A stretch of 32,000 nucleotides of DNA, from positions 1,050,001-1,082,000 of the forward strand of contig NC_009073.1 of NCBI RefSeq assembly GCF_000015805.1, written 5' to 3'. The notes beneath the pieces were generated by a model that saw only the letters and a program-made list of their open reading frames with translations, ran no database searches and had not been told where the DNA came from. Below are positions 15,818 to 22,025 of this stretch, in pieces. The DNA is from Pyrobaculum calidifontis JCM 11548 (GTDB lineage: Archaea; Thermoproteota; Thermoprotei; Thermoproteales; Thermoproteaceae). Both the position numbers and the translations under genes were made by a program. Positions within the stretch are counted from its first letter, which is position 1. Each line of letters starts with the position of its first letter.

Positions 15818-16807
15818 TTATCTCACAACATCTTTCACTACCTCGAAGATGAGGCCCGTCGGGTCTTCCAACCTCGGCGGCGTGGCTCTCCCGCTCTTCA
15901 GCGCATCTCTCAACGCCTTTACGCAACCCTCCTCGTCTTTGCACCGGAACAGAGGGGCGCCCCTTTCCTGGAGGTACCGGTCAATGTAGTAGTCCTCTGG
16001 GAAGTAGGAAAGCGCTGGGACCCCCAGGAGGGCGGCCTCCGTTGCCATGGTCGCGCCCCCAGAGACCACCGCCGCGGCGAAGTATGCCAAGTCTAAGTGG
16101 TCCACGGCGTGTGTGAGATTCACCACGCCCTCCTCCACTTGGTCATCGTACCGCGGCACGTTGACCACCTGGTACCCCATTTCGACGGCGAGCTTCATAA
16201 GCCTCCTGCGGAGCGACGCAGAATTCCACCGGTAGTACGCCGCGTGGCTCTCCTCGGGTCTAAAAACCACGTACCGCCCTGGGGCTAGGCCAAGGCTCTC
16301 CACTGTAGAGGCGTTGGGCCTAAACCTCGAAATCCACATGTACTCAAACACCCCGTCGAAGGTCACCACGCGCCGAGGACAATACCTAGCCCACTCCTCT
16401 GCGGGTATTGCCGAGGGGGCTATAAGCACGTCGGATAGAGGCAGGACGAGCCTGTTTACATGCACTGCGTGGGGAGTGTCGTTTAACACCACGAGGGGCT
16501 TCCCGAGGCCGAAGACGACCCTCGCCGCGTCAGGCGAGGGGAAGCTCAACATGCCGTCCACGCCCTTGGCCACCTCCACTAGCCCCAGCTGCCTCTCCAG
16601 GCCGAACACCAGCTTCTCGTACGTGTTCTTGCCGTATTTCCCAACGCAGAGATGTGGCACGTTGTACATCTTCAACATGTCTTCCACATGCATATACTCT
16701 CTACACGTCACCACCACCTCTATGCCCCTCCGCCGCCCCTCTACGTGGAGAACTGCGGCTATACGCGCCTGCTTGGGGGTCAACGCGTCGAAGAGCAACT
16801 TAGTCAT
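15818..16807 (-). CDS. DUF354-type protein (GT-B / UDP-GlcNAc 2-epimerase-like fold), unknown function
   Basis: 329 aa. The layout FDALTPKQ...[10 protein letters not shown]...VGKYG...[16 protein letters not shown]...[19 protein letters not shown] matches my recollection of the archaeal DUF354 family. Confidence 0.6.
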
Positions 16808-18512
16808 GTACGTAGATAAAAACGTCGGGACCGATCTTTTTCACAAACCCATACCTAAAGAACTGCGCATAGGCACCGACCTCTACGCCCCTTAGCACAG
16901 CCTCGCCGAGGCCAACCTCCTCCACCTTTCGGCCGGGGGCCCACGGCCGCACCACTCTGACCTCCACGGGGTCAACAACCCATTGGATAATCGGCGCGCC
17001 TATCTTCCTAGCCTCCTCGAGACTGAGGCTGTGCAAGCGGCCGTAAGCCACGCCGCCTTCAACCCTCTCAATCTCCACGTTGGCTAACTCCATGAGTCTA
17101 ACCACTGCCCCCTCCTTCACGTCTTGGCGCTGTACAAACACCTCGACCCTGCCCGGCCCCAGCCTATACACCCGCTCCCCCCGCTCCCTGAAGCTGGGGT
17201 GATAGGGCACCTTTGCCACAAGCTCCCTATCGGCTTCAAAGACGAGCCTCACGGGGTCGGCCACGTACATGTAGCGGTTTGCCACAGGCTCTATTTTCTT
17301 CCTATTTAGGGCAAAGAGGTTGGAAAGGGCGACGGTGGAGTCAGACGGCTTTATGCCCACTGTGAGGATGAGCTCCCATATGGCCTCTGGGAGTATCCCC
17401 CTGGCCCTAAGCCCGGCCAGCGTGGGCAAAGTGGGGTCGTCGTACCTCACCTTGAGGGCCTTGAGCTTAGACTTGCTGAGGGTGGCGCCCTCGATTTTAA
17501 GCCGGCCGAAGTGGATAGTGACAGGTTGCTCCCAGCCGAAGTGCTTAAAGACGTAGGACTGCTTCACGGTGTTGACGCTGTGCTCCTGCGCCCTCAGCAC
17601 GTGGGTGACGCCCATTAAGTGGTCGTCGATAGAGACGGCGAAGTTATACGTAGGCCAGACAATGTACTTATCCCCCACAAGGGGGTGGGGGGTCTTAGAC
17701 GTGTCGATGATTCTAAAGGCCACCCAATCTCTCACGCTTGGGTCTGGGTGCGACAAGTCAGTCTTTATCCTCACCACGGCCTCCCCCTCCCTAAACCGGC
17801 CCTCCAACATCTTATCCCAAAGCTCTAGGTTCTCCTCGGGGCTCTGCGACCTGTGGGGACAAGCCCTCCCCTCGTTTCTCAGCCTCCTCCACTCCTCCGG
17901 CCTACACAAGTCCACATAGGCGGCACCCATGGCCAAGAGCCTCTTGGCGTAGTCGTAGTACACCTCCATGCGCCTCGACTGTATATACTCCTCGTCCCAA
18001 GAGACGCCGAGCCACCTCAGATCCTCTCTAATGGCCTCGTAGGCGTTTACCTCCTCAGTAACAAGAGGCCTCTTAGTCCTGGGATCCGTATCCTCGAACC
18101 TGAGGATAAACCGCCCCCCGTACTTGAGCCGGTAGGCGTAGTTCAAAATCGCCGGCCTGGCGCTGCCCAAGTGGAGCACAAAGTCCGGGTTGGGGGCAAA
18201 TCGCACTACCACGCCGCCTTTAACCTTAGGCAGATCGGGGAGGGCCTCGATACCCGGCCTCTTCTGCTCCGGCCTCTTCTCCTCCAGGGCCTCAGGCCAC
18301 TTCTCCTCGAGAAGTCTCCTCTGCTCCTCTAGAGACATGGCGTTTACCCGCGCCACCACCGCCTCCACAACTTCCTTCACTTCCCTAGCCCTAGGCCTAA
18401 GCTCGGGGACTTCGGCCATTATCTTGGCCATAACTGCCTTTACGTCGGCCTTTCCGCCGTATTTAACTGCGTTGGCTAAGGCGTATTTAAGCGCGACTTC
18501 TTCAATGTTCAT
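16800..18512 (-). CDS. gltX: Glutamyl-tRNA synthetase, archaeal type
   Basis: 570 aa. [25 protein letters not shown] (HIGH-like), RFEDTDP and LSKSKL (KMSKS-like). Confidence 0.92.
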
Positions 18513-19185
18513 TGGCGTAGTACCTGTCCACCTCCTCTAAGTCCTTGAGACTGTCCACAGAGCGCCAAAACACGTCTTTAAACACCACGGCCCTCAGCCG
18601 CCTCTCCTTCGCCAGCTTTGGGAAAAGCGTCTCTTCAATGTTGCCGCGCTCCGGCAACTCCTCCAGCACCCTGCGCCGAAGCACATATACCCCGGCATTT
18701 ATGAAGAATCCGTCTAGCAACGGCTTTTCGCGAAATCTAACGACGTACCCCTTTTCGTCGAACTCCACTATGCCGTAGGGGCTCCTAAGCGGGACTAGGG
18801 CGATGGCGCCGTCTGCTTCGCCAAGCGACTCGGCCAAGACGTCCACGGGCAAGTTCGTCAACACGTCTCCGTTTACCACTACAAAGACGTCGCTGTTTAT
18901 GAAGAGGGAGGCATTTCTAATTGCCCCGCCCGTCCCCAGCGGCTCCTCTTCTACGCTGTAAAAAATCCTCACCCCATAGCGCCTCCCGTCGCCCAAGGCC
19001 TCGAAGACCTTATGCCTCAGATACCCCACGGCGAGGATTATGTCGCCTATGCCGAAGCTCTTCAGCCACTCAATCTGCCTCACCAAGATGGGCTTCCCGC
19101 CCACGGGAAGCAGAGGCTTCGGCGTCTCCGAGGTCAGAGGGGCGAGGCGCTTGCCGAAGCCGCCCGCCAAAATCACGGCTTGCAT
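18502..19185 (-). CDS. Sugar-phosphate nucleotidyltransferase (glucose/mannose-1-phosphate NTP-transferase family)
   Basis: [34 protein letters not shown] is the canonical NTP-transferase N-terminus. ATG 19185 is about 27 nt from the AT-rich element at 19204-19219; the track's GTG is at 19197. The 3' end overlaps the gltX start by 11 nt. Confidence 0.85.
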
Positions 19186-19203
19186 AACCGCAGTCACGCC
19201 CCC

Positions 19204-19219
19204 TTATTTATATTTAAAT
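19204..19219. promoter_or_regulatory. Strong AT-rich TATA element serving divergent leaderless genes
   Basis: ttatttatatttaaat. Its centre is about 26 nt from ATG 19238 (plus) and about 27 nt from ATG 19185 (minus). Confidence 0.6.
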
Positions 19220-19237
19220 GAGCCACAACTTAGGGCT

Positions 19238-19447
19238 ATGATATTTCACACGTCTCAACTGCCGGCAATTGAGGAGGTGGAGGAGATCTTGAGGCGGTAC
19301 CGGGTGAAGCCTCTGGTGGTGAAGGGGTCGCTGGTCAACTTCGTATGGCCGCCGCAGCCCACCGGAGTTCCGCTTGACTTACTCAAGCGGCTTCCCCGCG
19401 ACGTCTACGTCGTGCTTAGGGGCAAGACGCTGATAATTGTGCCATGA
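19238..19447 (+). CDS. Hypothetical small protein 1 of the interlocked four-gene cassette (69 aa)
   Basis: MIFHTSQLPAIEEVEEILRRYRVKPLVVKGSLVNFVWPPQPTGVPLDLLKRLPRDVYVVLRGKTLIIVP. The start is supported by TATA spacing. The track's upstream extension (19040-) is antisense to the nucleotidyltransferase gene. Confidence 0.6.
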   Translation: MIFHTSQLPAIEEVEEILRRYRVKPLVVKGSLVNFVWPPQPTGVPLDLLKRLPRDVYVVLRGKTLIIVP

Positions 19448-19575
19448 TGCGGAAGATGAAGGTGGAGGATCTGCCAATCGAGCCCAAGGTGAAGGAGGTC
19501 TTGTTAAAAGTGCTGGGGCCGGGGGAGGAGGTATACGTCGAGCAAGTGGGAGGCAGAGTGAGGATCATCATATGA
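19444..19575 (+). CDS. Hypothetical micro-protein 2 of the cassette (43 aa), absent from the ORF track
   Basis: Read by hand: MMRKMKVEDLPIEPKVKEVLLKVLGPGEEVYVEQVGGRVRIII. Its ATG overlaps the upstream TGA (ATGA at 19444-19447) and its TGA overlaps the downstream ATG (ATGA at 19572-19575). Confidence 0.5.
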   Translation: MMRKMKVEDLPIEPKVKEVLLKVLGPGEEVYVEQVGGRVRIII

Positions 19576-19997
19576 TAGTGGTCAAATCGTCTAATGTGGA
19601 GAAGTTCGCCTGGCATGTGAGGTCTCTTCTTCCCCAGCTTGAGTCTACGCCGATGCTTCTCGCAAAGCGGCAGGTGGGGAACTACGTCATTGGGCTCGGC
19701 ACCTTGGGCTATTTATACACGACGCTGTCCTACGTCCTAGAGGTGTTGATAGAGGCGGATAAAATGGCCGACGACTTAAAGCTGAGAGACTACACCCTCG
19801 TGATAGGCCCCGAGGCCAGCTACATCACCACGACGCCGTTGCCCGAGGTGTTGCCGCCATTGCCACAGCCGCGCGAGGTGCCCCCAGTGCCGAGGGAGGA
19901 GGTGGCCATAAACACCTTCGGCTGCAGAGAGGCGCCGCGAGGCATGGTCAGCTTCTGCATAGGCGACGTAGAAATCGCGTACTACCTACCACAATGA
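19572..19997 (+). CDS. Hypothetical protein 3 of the cassette (141 aa) with an internal Pro-rich linker
   Basis: MIVVKSSNVEKFAWHV..., linker TTTPLPEVLPPLPQPREVPPVPREE, and a small C-terminal module with two Cys. The track's N-terminal extension (19437-) is Gly/Arg-rich junk overlapping ORF 2 in another frame. Confidence 0.6.
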   Translation: MIVVKSSNVEKFAWHVRSLLPQLESTPMLLAKRQVGNYVIGLGTLGYLYTTLSYVLEVLIEADKMADDLKLRDYTLVIGPEASYITTTPLPEVLPPLPQPREVPPVPREEVAINTFGCREAPRGMVSFCIGDVEIAYYLPQ

Positions 19998-20323
19998 TAT
20001 ATTTGACTCTGTCTGAGCTAGAGTCGCTTCTGACGTCGATTAGAAACTACGCGGAGAAGTACAGGACGACCAAGCCTGTGCTTGAGGCAGTGGAGGAGCG
20101 GTGGAAGAAGTTCGAAGAGCTCGCCTTCGCCTTCGGCGTCGAGCTAAAGCCCGCCGAGGGGGTTGAGTTCTACTCCGGCGGCCCCCTCCCGGACAACGCC
20201 GAGTTTGTTAGACGTCTAGATAGGCTAATAAGCACTATTAAGAAAATTAGGGAGATTTATGGAGATGTAAAAGTTATCGTAGATATTGATATAAATGTCA
20301 AAAAAGTCACAATCAAAATTTAA
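19994..20323 (+). CDS. Hypothetical protein 4 of the cassette (109 aa)
   Basis: ATGA overlap at 19994-19997. Helix-like N-half (LSELESLLTSIRNYAEKY, EERWKKFEELAFAF) and an Ile/Val/Lys-rich tail VKVIVDIDINVKKVTIKI. No family recognised. Confidence 0.6.
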   Translation: MIYLTLSELESLLTSIRNYAEKYRTTKPVLEAVEERWKKFEELAFAFGVELKPAEGVEFYSGGPLPDNAEFVRRLDRLISTIKKIREIYGDVKVIVDIDINVKKVTIKI

Positions 20324-20327
20324 ATAG
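20315..20327 (+). promoter_or_regulatory. TATA-like box for the CBS/DUF309 gene pair, overlapping the stop codon of cassette gene 4
   Basis: aaaatttaaatag is centred about 25 nt upstream of ATG 20346. Confidence 0.5.
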
Positions 20328-20345
20328 ACAGGAAAAAGACATCAT

Positions 20346-20762
20346 ATGCCTCTGATAAGGCGTAGGGAAATACCCCTAAGAGTCTCTGACATAATGGTAA
20401 AGGAGGTTGTGACGGCAAAGAAGGACGAGAAGATAAAAGACGTGGCCCTCCGGATGTATGAAAAGAAGGTTGGCAGCGTCGTTGTTGTAGACGAGGAGGG
20501 CAAGCCAGTGGGCATAATCACCGAGCGCGACATGGTCTACGTATGCGCCCGCGGACTCTCCCCCGACACGCCCGCATGGATGGTTATGACAGAGAACCCC
20601 GTTACAATCAACGAGAACGCACTAGTGACAGAGGCCATGGAGAAGATGCGACAACTCGACATACGCCACCTCCCAGTGGTAGACTCCACGGGCAAGCTCG
20701 TTGGCATCATATCCTTTAGAGACGTGTTAGACACCGCGCTGCTGTTGACGTCCATTAGATGA
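20346..20762 (+). CDS. CBS-domain pair protein
   Basis: 138 aa with two CBS repeats (VSDIMVKEVVTAKKDEKI..GSVVVVDEEGKPVGIITERD and MTENPVTINENALVTEAMEKMRQLDIRHLPVVDSTGKLVGIISFRD). Confidence 0.85.
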   Translation: MPLIRRREIPLRVSDIMVKEVVTAKKDEKIKDVALRMYEKKVGSVVVVDEEGKPVGIITERDMVYVCARGLSPDTPAWMVMTENPVTINENALVTEAMEKMRQLDIRHLPVVDSTGKLVGIISFRDVLDTALLLTSIR

Positions 20763-21280
20763 GGTATTTGCTCATAGTGGAGAACCCCGGCTACACAGTC
20801 AAAAATAGGCCGCATTTGTTAAAGGAACTCAGGGCGCACCTCCCAGTCATAGCCCTCAGAATCGCCACTCGGCACATAGAAGTAGATGTGAAAGGCGCCG
20901 ACCCCCAAGAGGCCAGGAAAATTGTCGAGAGGATTTTGGGAGGATCTGTGGTAGAGGTAGTGGACATAACCTTTGAAGAGGTCAAGGGCGGCGTAGAGGA
21001 CTACGTCCGGCTCTTTAACCAAGAGAGGTTTTGGGAGGCCCACAACGCCCTCGAGGGGCTTTGGAGATCCACCAGAAACCCCACGTTGCAGGGGCTGATC
21101 ATGCTCGCCGCTGCGTTCGTAAAACTGCAAGAGGGGCAGTTGGACAAGTTTGAAACACTGATAAAAGAGGCGGTGGGCCTAATAACAGAGGACGTGGGGT
21201 GTATAAGGGCCAAGGAGCTGAGGGAGAAGGCCTTGGCCGCGTTGGTACAGAAGGCGCCTTTTAGAATAGAATGCTCTTGA
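20759..21280 (+). CDS. DUF309-domain protein with an extra N-terminal domain of unknown type
   Basis: The C-half FNQERFWEAHNALEGLW...LQGLIMLAAAFVKLQEG fits the DUF309 helical motif. I do not recognise the N-half (about 80 aa). ATGA overlap with the CBS gene. Confidence 0.6.
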   Translation: MRYLLIVENPGYTVKNRPHLLKELRAHLPVIALRIATRHIEVDVKGADPQEARKIVERILGGSVVEVVDITFEEVKGGVEDYVRLFNQERFWEAHNALEGLWRSTRNPTLQGLIMLAAAFVKLQEGQLDKFETLIKEAVGLITEDVGCIRAKELREKALAALVQKAPFRIECS

Positions 21281-22025
21281 CTTTCTCAACGAGTCTGGGC
21301 AATATCTCCTCCACTCTCCCCCGCAGTATGTAGTCGGCGAAAAAGTCGTAGTACGTCTCATCTGCGTTTATTATGACGAGCTTTGCCCCCCTTTTCTTTG
21401 CCACCACGGGTAGCTGGTTGGCTGGATACACGGCGAGGGACGTCCCCACGGCTAGGAAGACCTCCGCTATTTCCGCGAGCATAAAGGCCTCCCGCAACGC
21501 GTCTTGCGGCAGAGGCTCGCCGAAGAAGACCACATCTGGCTTTAAAACTCCGCCGCACCTGGGGCACCTGGGCGCCCCAGCCGTGCGCCACTTCAATGCC
21601 TCGCGTAGTGGATACCTCATTCCACACTTTGTACAAACGGCGTCTCGCAACGCGCCGTGGAGCTCTACCACGTTTTTACTGCCGGCGGCTTGGTGCAACA
21701 TGTCCACATTCTGCGTAATTACGGCGCAGAGCTTTCCCACCCGCTCCAGCTCTGCTAATGCGTAGTGGGCTGGGTTCGGCTTTACGTCAAAGGCGGGCAG
21801 TAGGTATTGCACAAAGAGGTCCCACACCTCGTCTGGATGCTGGTGGAAGTAGGAAATCTCGAACTTCTCGGGGTCTACAAACCGCCACACGCCTTGGGGC
21901 CCTCTAAAGTCGGGAATGCCGCTCGCCGTAGACACTCCGGCGCCGGTGAGGGCCACAGTGCACCCAGACCTAGCTATGAGGGAGGCGACTTCATCAATTT
22001 CTCCAGCTGAGACATCCACCTCCAT
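21261..22025 (-). CDS. cobB: NAD-dependent protein deacylase, Sir2 family
   Basis: LTGAGVSTASGIPDFRGPQGVW, ITQNVDMLH and the Zn ribbon CTKCG...CPRCGG. Confidence 0.9.
   Translation of the reverse strand: MEVDVSAGEIDEVASLIARSGCTVALTGAGVSTASGIPDFRGPQGVWRFVDPEKFEISYFHQHPDEVWDLFVQYLLPAFDVKPNPAHYALAELERVGKLCAVITQNVDMLHQAAGSKNVVELHGALRDAVCTKCGMRYPLREALKWRTAGAPRCPRCGGVLKPDVVFFGEPLPQDALREAFMLAEIAEVFLAVGTSLAVYPANQLPVVAKKRGAKLVIINADETYYDFFADYILRGRVEEILPRLVEKVKSILF

Follow-up and report, generated by a model that had tools for sequence, protein, structure and literature searches.

Four small genes of the archaeon Pyrobaculum calidifontis JCM 11548, here called g1 to g4, are a genuine, conserved, lineage-restricted orphan module. 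They lie in a 32,000-nucleotide (nt) stretch of the chromosome (NC_009073.1, positions 1,050,001 to 1,082,000), which we refer to as the window and to which all coordinates given without a locus label belong. We propose, with confidence evenly poised between acceptance and doubt, that g1-g4 form a leaderless, translationally coupled operon for one small soluble hetero-oligomer held together by β-hairpins. The genes, their junctions and the tract in front of them are as follows.

19204-19219, no strand assigned: AT-rich TATA tract TTATTTATATTTAAAT, read in the sequence
19238-19447, plus strand: g1, 69 amino acids (aa), 7.9 kDa (ABO08564.1 / A3MV97)
19444-19447, plus strand: ATGA stop/start overlap of g1 and g2, read in the sequence
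19444-19575, plus strand: g2, 43 aa, 4.9 kDa, MMRKMKVEDLPIEPKVKEVLLKVLGPGEEVYVEQVGGRVRIII (WP_264317701.1; ABO08565.1)
19572-19575, plus strand: ATGA stop/start overlap of g2 and g3, read in the sequence
19572-19997, plus strand: g3, 141 aa, 15.7 kDa (ABO08566.1 / A3MV99)
19994-19997, plus strand: ATGA stop/start overlap of g3 and g4, read in the sequence
19994-20323, plus strand: g4, 109 aa, 12.6 kDa (ABO08567.1 / A3MVA0)

Re-reading the DNA reproduced the coordinates, lengths and translations of the four open reading frames (ORFs) and the three ATGA junctions that had been claimed in an earlier, sequence-only reading. That reading had also presented the 43-codon frame of g2 as a gene missing from its list of ORFs. 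The frame is real, but it was absent solely from that length-filtered list and had already been deposited in GenBank and RefSeq. The GenBank entry (ABO08565.1) begins at the second ATG and has 42 aa, while the RefSeq entry (WP_264317701.1) has 43 aa; we favour the 43-aa form, because the start codon of the orthologues is the [AG]TG overlapping the stop of g1. Gene callers also called g2 in metagenome contigs. The products of all four genes are deposited as "hypothetical protein" (UniProt A3MV97-A3MVA0).

Comparative data, and not single-sequence statistics, are decisive in showing that this arrangement exceeds chance. A genome scan gave 14 loci (10 in Pyrobaculum and 4 in Thermoproteus), a metagenome scan gave 33 more, and contig look-ups added deeper lineages, for a total of 56 loci, 53 of them distinct; junctions were tallied over distinct loci wherever they could be scored. 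We looked in these relatives for frameshifts, stops or scattered genes, and the order g1-g2-g3-g4 was identical in all 56 loci. The 4-nt overlap (ATGA or GTGA) between g1 and g2 was kept at 47 of 50 scorable junctions. Between g2 and g3 a 4-nt overlap was present at 44 of 51, the others having a 1-nt overlap, a gap of 2-3 nt, or lying on contigs with indels. The g3/g4 junction was more variable, with a 4-nt overlap at 35 of 50, a 1-nt overlap (TAATG) in 12 Thermoproteus loci and a 14-nt overlap in locus L017. Among Pyrobaculum pairs the median ratio of nonsynonymous to synonymous substitution rates (dN/dS) was 0.08 for g1, 0.23 for g2, 0.12 for g3 and 0.09 for g4. Third codon positions were saturated, nearly all of them variable; the variable columns of g2 at the three codon positions numbered 31, 21 and 42 of 43, and its frame was intact in essentially all related loci. 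All four genes, the 43-codon frame included, are protein-coding genes under purifying selection, and their order and overlaps have been kept across two genera and deeper lineages. The earlier argument that a frame filling the gap between g1 and g3 exactly would rarely arise by chance was not supported within one sequence, as ORFs of 40 aa or more were joined at 17 [AG]TGA sites in the window, versus 13.5 in shuffled sequence.

Broken copies were found at five loci. In L012 (3780-3900, a binned metagenome-assembled genome), a run of 12 C in g1 together with nearby indels breaks both g1 and g2, and similar breaks occur in L029, L030, L050 and L055, which are short, early metagenome contigs. L012 is the copy that we inspected, and the frameshifted copies are most likely assembly errors and not pseudogenes.

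The TATA element previously noted in front of g1 stands at the distance expected for a leaderless transcript. The centre of the tract at 19204-19219 is 26.5 nt from the g1 ATG (19238, plus strand), and a TATA-like box was found at the same distance from the g1 start in 15 of the 15 loci compared. Because this spacing equals that between the archaeal TATA box and the transcription start, a transcript with essentially no leader is to be expected; leaderless mRNAs are the norm in Pyrobaculum. From archaeal promoter geometry, we infer that the tract serves as promoter of a leaderless g1-g4 mRNA. The sequence leaves no room for a terminator or promoter between the four cistrons.

We then compared the genes that surround the module. 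In the window its neighbours are:

16800-18512, minus strand: glutamyl-tRNA synthetase (GluRS)
18502-19197, minus strand: sugar-nucleotidyl transferase (NTP-transferase), divergent from g1
20346-20762, plus strand: CBS-pair protein gene, downstream of g4
20759-21280, plus strand: DUF309-domain gene, sharing an ATGA overlap with the CBS gene at 20759-20762
21261-22025, minus strand: Sir2 deacetylase

Among the relatives the arrangements are:

Pyrobaculum: GluRS and NTP-transferase (minus strand), g1-g4, CBS and DUF309, then Sir2 (minus strand)
Thermoproteus: PAPS-reductase/ferredoxin gene, g1-g4, then DUF309 directly (TAAATG)
AZ2-like Thermoproteus: homoserine kinase gene (thrB) between g4 and DUF309, overlapping g4 by 1 nt and DUF309 by 4 nt
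L017 (47-7851): 853-aa surface protein on one side of g1-g4; on the other, preceding and co-directional with the module, a cluster encoding a pilin-like protein, a membrane protein of 504 aa, a T2SSE ATPase and two small proteins
L018/L019 (L018 508-8083): T2SSE cluster inverted and divergent from g1-g3; g4 missing

Through all five neighbourhoods g1-g3 remain contiguous while the flanking genes change. That g1-g3, usually with g4, are the only genes to stay together through these rearrangements is the stronger argument for a functional unit. At L018 4643-5426 and L019 1013-1796, g1, g2 and g3 occur without g4 at the locus, and a convergent large gene abuts g3. The thrB assignment in the AZ2-like Thermoproteus scored 239 bits against an NCBIfam cutoff of 194.

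DUF309 is the last co-directional gene after g4, separated from it by CBS, by the homoserine kinase gene or by nothing (L014 4746-4752; L021 3398-4285), and was absent from the L017 and L018 contexts. A functional linkage of DUF309 to g1-g4 is possible. In L017 and L018, the T2SSE cluster includes a polytopic, FlaJ-like membrane protein of ~505 aa, and the flanking protein of 850-880 aa has, by inspection, a signal-like N-terminus and a C-terminal membrane anchor. This neighbour is not the same as the S-layer protein (292 kDa) of a recent preprint. The 71-aa protein of the T2SSE cluster was considered as a paralogue of g1 or g4 and rejected, having no homology to either. The tight packing of this genome is illustrated by the 11-nt overlap of the GluRS and NTP-transferase genes (18502-18512) and by the DUF309 and Sir2 genes, which converge and overlap by 20 nt at their ends (21261-21280).

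The region upstream of g1 may also serve the divergent neighbour. NTP-transferase orthologues align from the Met at 19185 (MQAVILAGG) and not from the listed GTG at 19197, and the centre of the tract at 19204-19219 is 26.5 nt from this conserved ATG (19185, minus strand) as well. The tract is the sole AT-rich box in the 52-nt intergenic region (window 19183-19240). Its equal distance from both ATGs suggests one shared, symmetric bidirectional promoter giving two leaderless transcripts. In other Pyrobaculum species the spacer between g1 and the NTP-transferase gene is longer and seems to contain two AT-rich boxes.

No family could be assigned to any of the four proteins, as the sequence-only reading had anticipated. 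Pfam, NCBIfam, PHROGs and PADLOC gave no usable match for g1-g4 or for orthologues from a distant lineage, and a member-by-member Pfam scan of the g3 and g4 alignments found no family matched by more than 2 of 13 members. Profile searches of PDB sequences with all four family alignments returned noise only. PHROGs had no match for g1 or g2, and PHROGs and PADLOC together had none below E 0.01, with four to five weak g4 matches at E 0.025-0.32; among the 2.9 million contigs of IMG/VR there was no relative of g1-g4. Every entry recovered from 5.8 billion proteins, whether with the single g3 sequence or with a broader profile of it, came from Pyrobaculum, Thermoproteus or a "Thermoproteaceae archaeon". 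HMMER, run in full with the g4 profile against 1.84 billion cluster representatives, gave three real clusters, all Thermoproteaceae; three long coiled-coil proteins that also matched this profile were judged spurious. The papers searched contained no mention of the genes under their locus tags or their UniProt or RefSeq accessions, and those matching the term DUF309 were uninformative. Placement in well-known families of unrelated function was thus sought by profile and fold searches, and no placement resulted. As judged from these searches, the g1-g4 family is confined to the Thermoproteaceae, where it is probably a vertically inherited operon, and its cargo appears to be orphan, with no detectable relation to any described family.

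We analysed the four proteins by alignment and, for g3 and g4, by structure prediction. The alignment pattern of g1 indicates an N-terminal MI-strand, a helix, two strands, an invariant WPP and a C-terminal β-hairpin with an invariant terminal Pro. The g2 protein, 43-47 aa long among orthologues, is basic at its N-terminus and continues with a short helix to a C-terminal hairpin (EVYVE..G.RIRIIL). In g3 a Pro-rich linker connects an α/β N-domain (strand-helix-hairpin-helix-two strands) to a C-terminal hairpin with invariant Cys118 and Cys129. In g4, an N-terminal strand is followed by a 40-residue helix, a loop with a conserved EGVEFY.GG, a second helix and a C-terminal hairpin. Both g1 and g2 are mostly basic (g2 pI 8.1-9.8), and g3 and g4 are acidic to neutral. 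A hydropathy scan bore out the earlier statement that the four proteins lack transmembrane segments and signal peptides. The maximum Kyte-Doolittle 19-residue mean was 1.29 in g3 of the window (0.85-1.63 in orthologues) and below 1.3 in g1, g2 and g4, with no transmembrane-like segment. No N-terminal hydrophobic helix, and hence no class III signal peptide of the kind carried by type IV pilins and archaellins, was found.

The AlphaFold model of g3, built with 21 sequences, had a mean predicted local distance difference test score (pLDDT) of 71.5. It places a strand at residues 2-5, a helix at 6-25, a hairpin at 29-43, a helix at 45-68 and strands at 75-78 and 83-86, followed by the Pro-rich stretch and a terminal hairpin at 125-138; the two helices have 20 and 24 residues. 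The model is confident at residues 1-20 and 51-95. Confidence is low in the central hairpin with its invariant GLGTLGY (blocks 21-50, pLDDT 52-63), and the C-terminal hairpin reaches a pLDDT of only 48-56 although it is highly conserved. This bears out the previous description of g3 as two halves joined by a Pro-rich linker, residues 89-107 forming a low-confidence linker in the model:

19836-19892, plus strand: Pro-rich segment of g3, residues 89-107, PLPEVLPPLPQPREVPPVP, from alignments

Within this segment P95 and P98 were invariant in every alignment made, and P91, P96 and P105 were invariant or nearly so; residues 107-115, which adjoin it, have a pLDDT below 50. We infer that the segment acts in docking, as a conserved motif, and is more than a passive connection. 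The two cysteines (window 19923-19958) flank the C-terminal hairpin and are invariant in every lineage. Intracellular disulfides are known in Pyrobaculum, and the pair may form a stabilising disulfide or belong to a metal or redox site. The g4 model (27 sequences, pLDDT 81.8) has a strand at residues 2-5, the 40-residue helix, a loop, a helix at 69-89 and two terminal strands, with weak confidence in the tail.

Searched against PDB with Foldseek, the g3 model found archaeal prefoldin as its best match (1fxk, E 0.15), with a few phage connector proteins among the weak matches; against viral structures (BFVD) it had no match at E <=0.001. The g4 model matched only generic helical bundles and hairpins in PDB. 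By eye, all four proteins have a hydrophobic terminal β-hairpin (g1 DVYVVLRGKTLIIVP, g2 EVYVEQVGGRVRIII, g3 GMVSFCIGDVEIAYYL, g4 GDVKVIVDIDINVKKVTIKI), and g1, g3 and g4 begin MI-h-h-x-S/T followed by a helix. Paralogy among the four was considered and rejected, as hhalign found no significant relationship between the families. We regard the shared hairpin and MI-start as resemblance only, because of this null result and because the A following the ATG is partly forced by the ATGA overlap.

These features can be accommodated in a single model. Transcription would start at, or within a few nt of, the g1 ATG to give a leaderless mRNA, and ribosomes ending one cistron would reinitiate on the overlapping [AG]TG of the next, so that the four products would be made together and in similar amounts. 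Several of these would be too small or too poorly packed to fold alone, and the four would pair their terminal strands into one hetero-oligomer, leaving the helices of g3 and g4 and the invariant g3 proline motif LPEV.PPLP exposed as binding surfaces. The conserved yet poorly placed hairpins of g3, together with the weak tail of g4, show in the models the pattern expected of elements that need a partner. Strand-mediated assembly is also suggested by the best fold neighbours of g3, the prefoldin subunits, which oligomerise through β-hairpins, and by the small size of g2. The weakest step of the model is that the particle would be a non-enzymatic scaffold, adaptor or holdase and not an enzyme. 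It may have a link to the DUF309 protein or to machinery at the cell surface, but we hold any particular cellular role with much lower confidence than the complex itself. Going further, the particle may be an undescribed, Thermoproteaceae-only assembly in which the terminal hairpins of four unrelated chains build a β-sheet or barrel core with projecting helices and a polyproline docking motif, serving a lineage-specific process such as cell-envelope or pilus biogenesis; we consider this extension unlikely. To our knowledge, rod-shaped Thermoproteaceae lack both FtsZ- and ESCRT-based division machinery, which is why lineage-specific cell-biology factors are being sought in them.

Several observations weigh against a common complex. 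An ATGA junction in a single genome is not statistically unusual, given the counts in window and shuffled sequence. The earlier reading had taken the serial overlaps to imply subunits of one complex; overlaps alone are insufficient evidence of functional partnership, since the thrB, CBS and DUF309 genes have junctions of this kind too. The absence of g4 from the L018/L019 locus means that a strict four-subunit stoichiometry cannot be universal. Profile-profile comparisons show no relatedness among g1-g4, and the shared hairpin may be superficial. The resemblance of g3 to prefoldin is weak (TM-score 0.33-0.43, root mean square deviation ~8 A), and the helices of prefoldin are long coiled coils of ~40 residues, versus 20 and 24 in g3. 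Finally, the complex is deduced from sequence, and the papers searched are silent on these genes under their accessions and locus tags.

One alternative is that g1-g4 are independent small proteins that a compact hyperthermophile genome packs in one transcription unit without their forming a common complex, the overlaps being a matter of genome economy. Overlaps join unrelated genes here, as with thrB, with CBS/DUF309 at 20759 and with the 11 nt shared by GluRS and NTP-transferase; g4 has been lost from the L018/L019 locus; and homology among the four is not detectable. However, g1-g3 stay contiguous and coupled in five neighbourhoods though all flanks change, and a 43-aa g2 and conserved but poorly packed g3 hairpins are hard to explain as stand-alone folds, so that we find independence doubtful, with some chance of being right. 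We give a smaller chance to a DNA-binding or regulatory unit, in which g2, perhaps with the C-terminal half of g1, would be a minimal SpoVT/AbrB swapped-hairpin protein that dimerises into a β-barrel and binds DNA, with g3 and g4 as partners or targets. When g2 was aligned by hhalign with four AbrB/SpoVT/Abh/MazE reference N-domains, 29 columns matched with P = 0.0099, and I-[DP]-P, the helix and the GxxxVYVE hairpin fell where the fold would have them; g2 gave P = 0.049 with the C-terminal half of g1 and is basic, at the pI given above. Yet the hhalign probability was only 4%, no Pfam SpoVT/AbrB match appeared at E up to 1-10, no AbrB, MazE or VapB chain came up in the PDB profile searches, and the C-terminal half of g1 showed nothing against AbrB (P 0.53). 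The alignment also has a three-residue deletion in the first hairpin, the element that holds the DNA-contacting arginines of AbrB. The AbrB-like resemblance of g2 is a lead, not a placement.

Slightly less probable still is a role for the module as a cytoplasmic accessory of a cell-surface machine, type-IV-pilus-like or other, for example a chaperone or adaptor for a T2SSE-family ATPase or its substrates. The module adjoins a T2SSE ATPase cluster in two divergent lineages, co-directionally in L017 and inverted in L018, and the signal-like, C-terminally anchored protein of 850-880 aa flanks it in both. In contrast, no such cluster lies nearby in more than 50 Pyrobaculum and Thermoproteus loci or in the 32-kb window, g1-g4 are without a class III signal peptide or transmembrane segment, and the 71-aa cluster protein is not homologous to g1 or g4; the adjacency in two lineages may reflect inherited synteny and not function. 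Descent from a virus, plasmid, toxin-antitoxin or defence island, as remnant or cargo, is effectively refuted. Small, overlapping, orphan genes are typical of such elements, and phage connector proteins were among the weak Foldseek matches, but there was no PHROG or PADLOC match below E 0.01, no IMG/VR relative and no significant BFVD fold match, and the single-copy genes keep one housekeeping neighbourhood, with GluRS, NTP-transferase and Sir2, in two genera and are under strong purifying selection. Set beside these alternatives, the coupled operon for one hetero-oligomer is the reading we prefer.

Two further nucleotide-level signals were observed within the genes. The first is a drop in GC content towards the end of g4:

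20200-20345, plus strand: AT-rich 3' third of g4 and 22-nt spacer, GC 0.28-0.31

The first 75 codons of g4 have a GC content of ~0.57. At third codon positions, GC falls from 0.76 in these codons to 0.26 in the last 35, and a similar drop was present in nearly all orthologues. DNA alignment revealed a conserved TATA-like motif, AAAATTTAAATA / AAGATATAAAT (~20310-20325), which encloses the g4 stop codon and lies ~27 nt before the CBS ATG (20346). The region 20200-20345 shows constraint at the nucleotide level, which probably reflects a promoter inside the g4 coding sequence. The second signal concerns the last codons of g2 (R-I/V-R-V-I-L; window 19557-19571, e.g. L008 3986-4000). Several species have AGGGTGATCCT here, similar to the complement of the 16S rRNA 3' end, which we take to be GGAUCACCUCA; the resemblance is less clear at window 19557-19571 itself (GAGGATCATC). 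The end of g2 may therefore contain a putative Shine-Dalgarno-like site for g3. Rfam gave no match at E up to 1 in 18400-21400.

Should g1-g4 prove to be parts of a single particle, they would define a new protein assembly that has no detectable relative beyond one archaeal family and includes a conserved subunit of 43 residues. The particle would also offer a tractable target in archaea whose basic cell biology is poorly understood, the four genes fitting in ~1.1 kb of DNA. The newness lies in the absence of a detectable relation to described families and not in a new mechanism. The sequence-only reading had called the genes a candidate undescribed module; they are indeed family-less and conserved, but that reading was overstated in that the 43-aa ORF is already annotated, g4 is absent from the locus in one lineage and an ATGA junction in one genome is not unusual. 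Archaeal genomes commonly contain lineage-restricted operons of hypothetical proteins, and g1-g4 have been in the databases since genome deposition. The expected pay-off is moderate: a reasonable structural-genomics target for a specialist, and no surprise.

Comparison with known systems places these results in context. In its genetics the locus is ordinary: like other translationally coupled leaderless operons, it has a TATA box ~27 nt before the first ATG and cistrons joined by 4-nt or 1-nt overlaps, with the TATA element inside the 25-30 nt range from the first start and the overlaps conserved in relatives. Coupling through ATGA or TGATG overlaps is widespread in the operons of bacteria and archaea. 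It is notable against such operons only for three junctions conserved across genera and a cargo without an assignable family. DUF309 (PF03745; TTHA0068-like, PDB 2cwy), which is co-directional with g1-g4, abutting g4 in Thermoproteus and lying downstream in Pyrobaculum, is itself uncharacterised; it is a different and widely distributed family, separated from g4 by CBS or thrB in some lineages.

SpoVT/AbrB domains (AbrB, MazE and archaeal VapB-type antitoxins) are units of ~45 residues that form obligate dimers. They are built from a strand, a proline-initiated helix and a GD/E-x-V-x-V hairpin with hydrophobic strands, and g2 aligns in that register, although with sub-threshold similarity, a probability of 4% and three residues deleted in the first hairpin. 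Whereas toxin-antitoxin pairs are mobile, g1-g4 behave as a conserved core operon: PADLOC and Pfam identified no toxin or defence domain, and in every Pyrobaculum and Thermoproteus locus the module is single and in synteny. For g3 the top Foldseek neighbours were archaeal prefoldins (GimC, 1fxk, 2zdi; E 0.15-0.28, probability up to 0.97). No Pfam prefoldin match was found for g1-g4 at E up to 1, or for 13 g3 and 13 g4 orthologues at E up to 10, and no prefoldin chain appeared in the PDB profile searches. Prefoldin is a hexamer of two α and four β subunits on a double β-barrel, and its long antiparallel coiled-coil helices flank one hairpin in the β and two in the α subunit. The g3 model has extra strands, a proline linker and a second hairpin beyond the prefoldin fold. 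What the g3 model shares with prefoldin is the order helix, β-hairpin, helix in a small soluble subunit, and the two systems are alike in having several different small chains; in prefoldin, it is through the hairpins that the subunits oligomerise.

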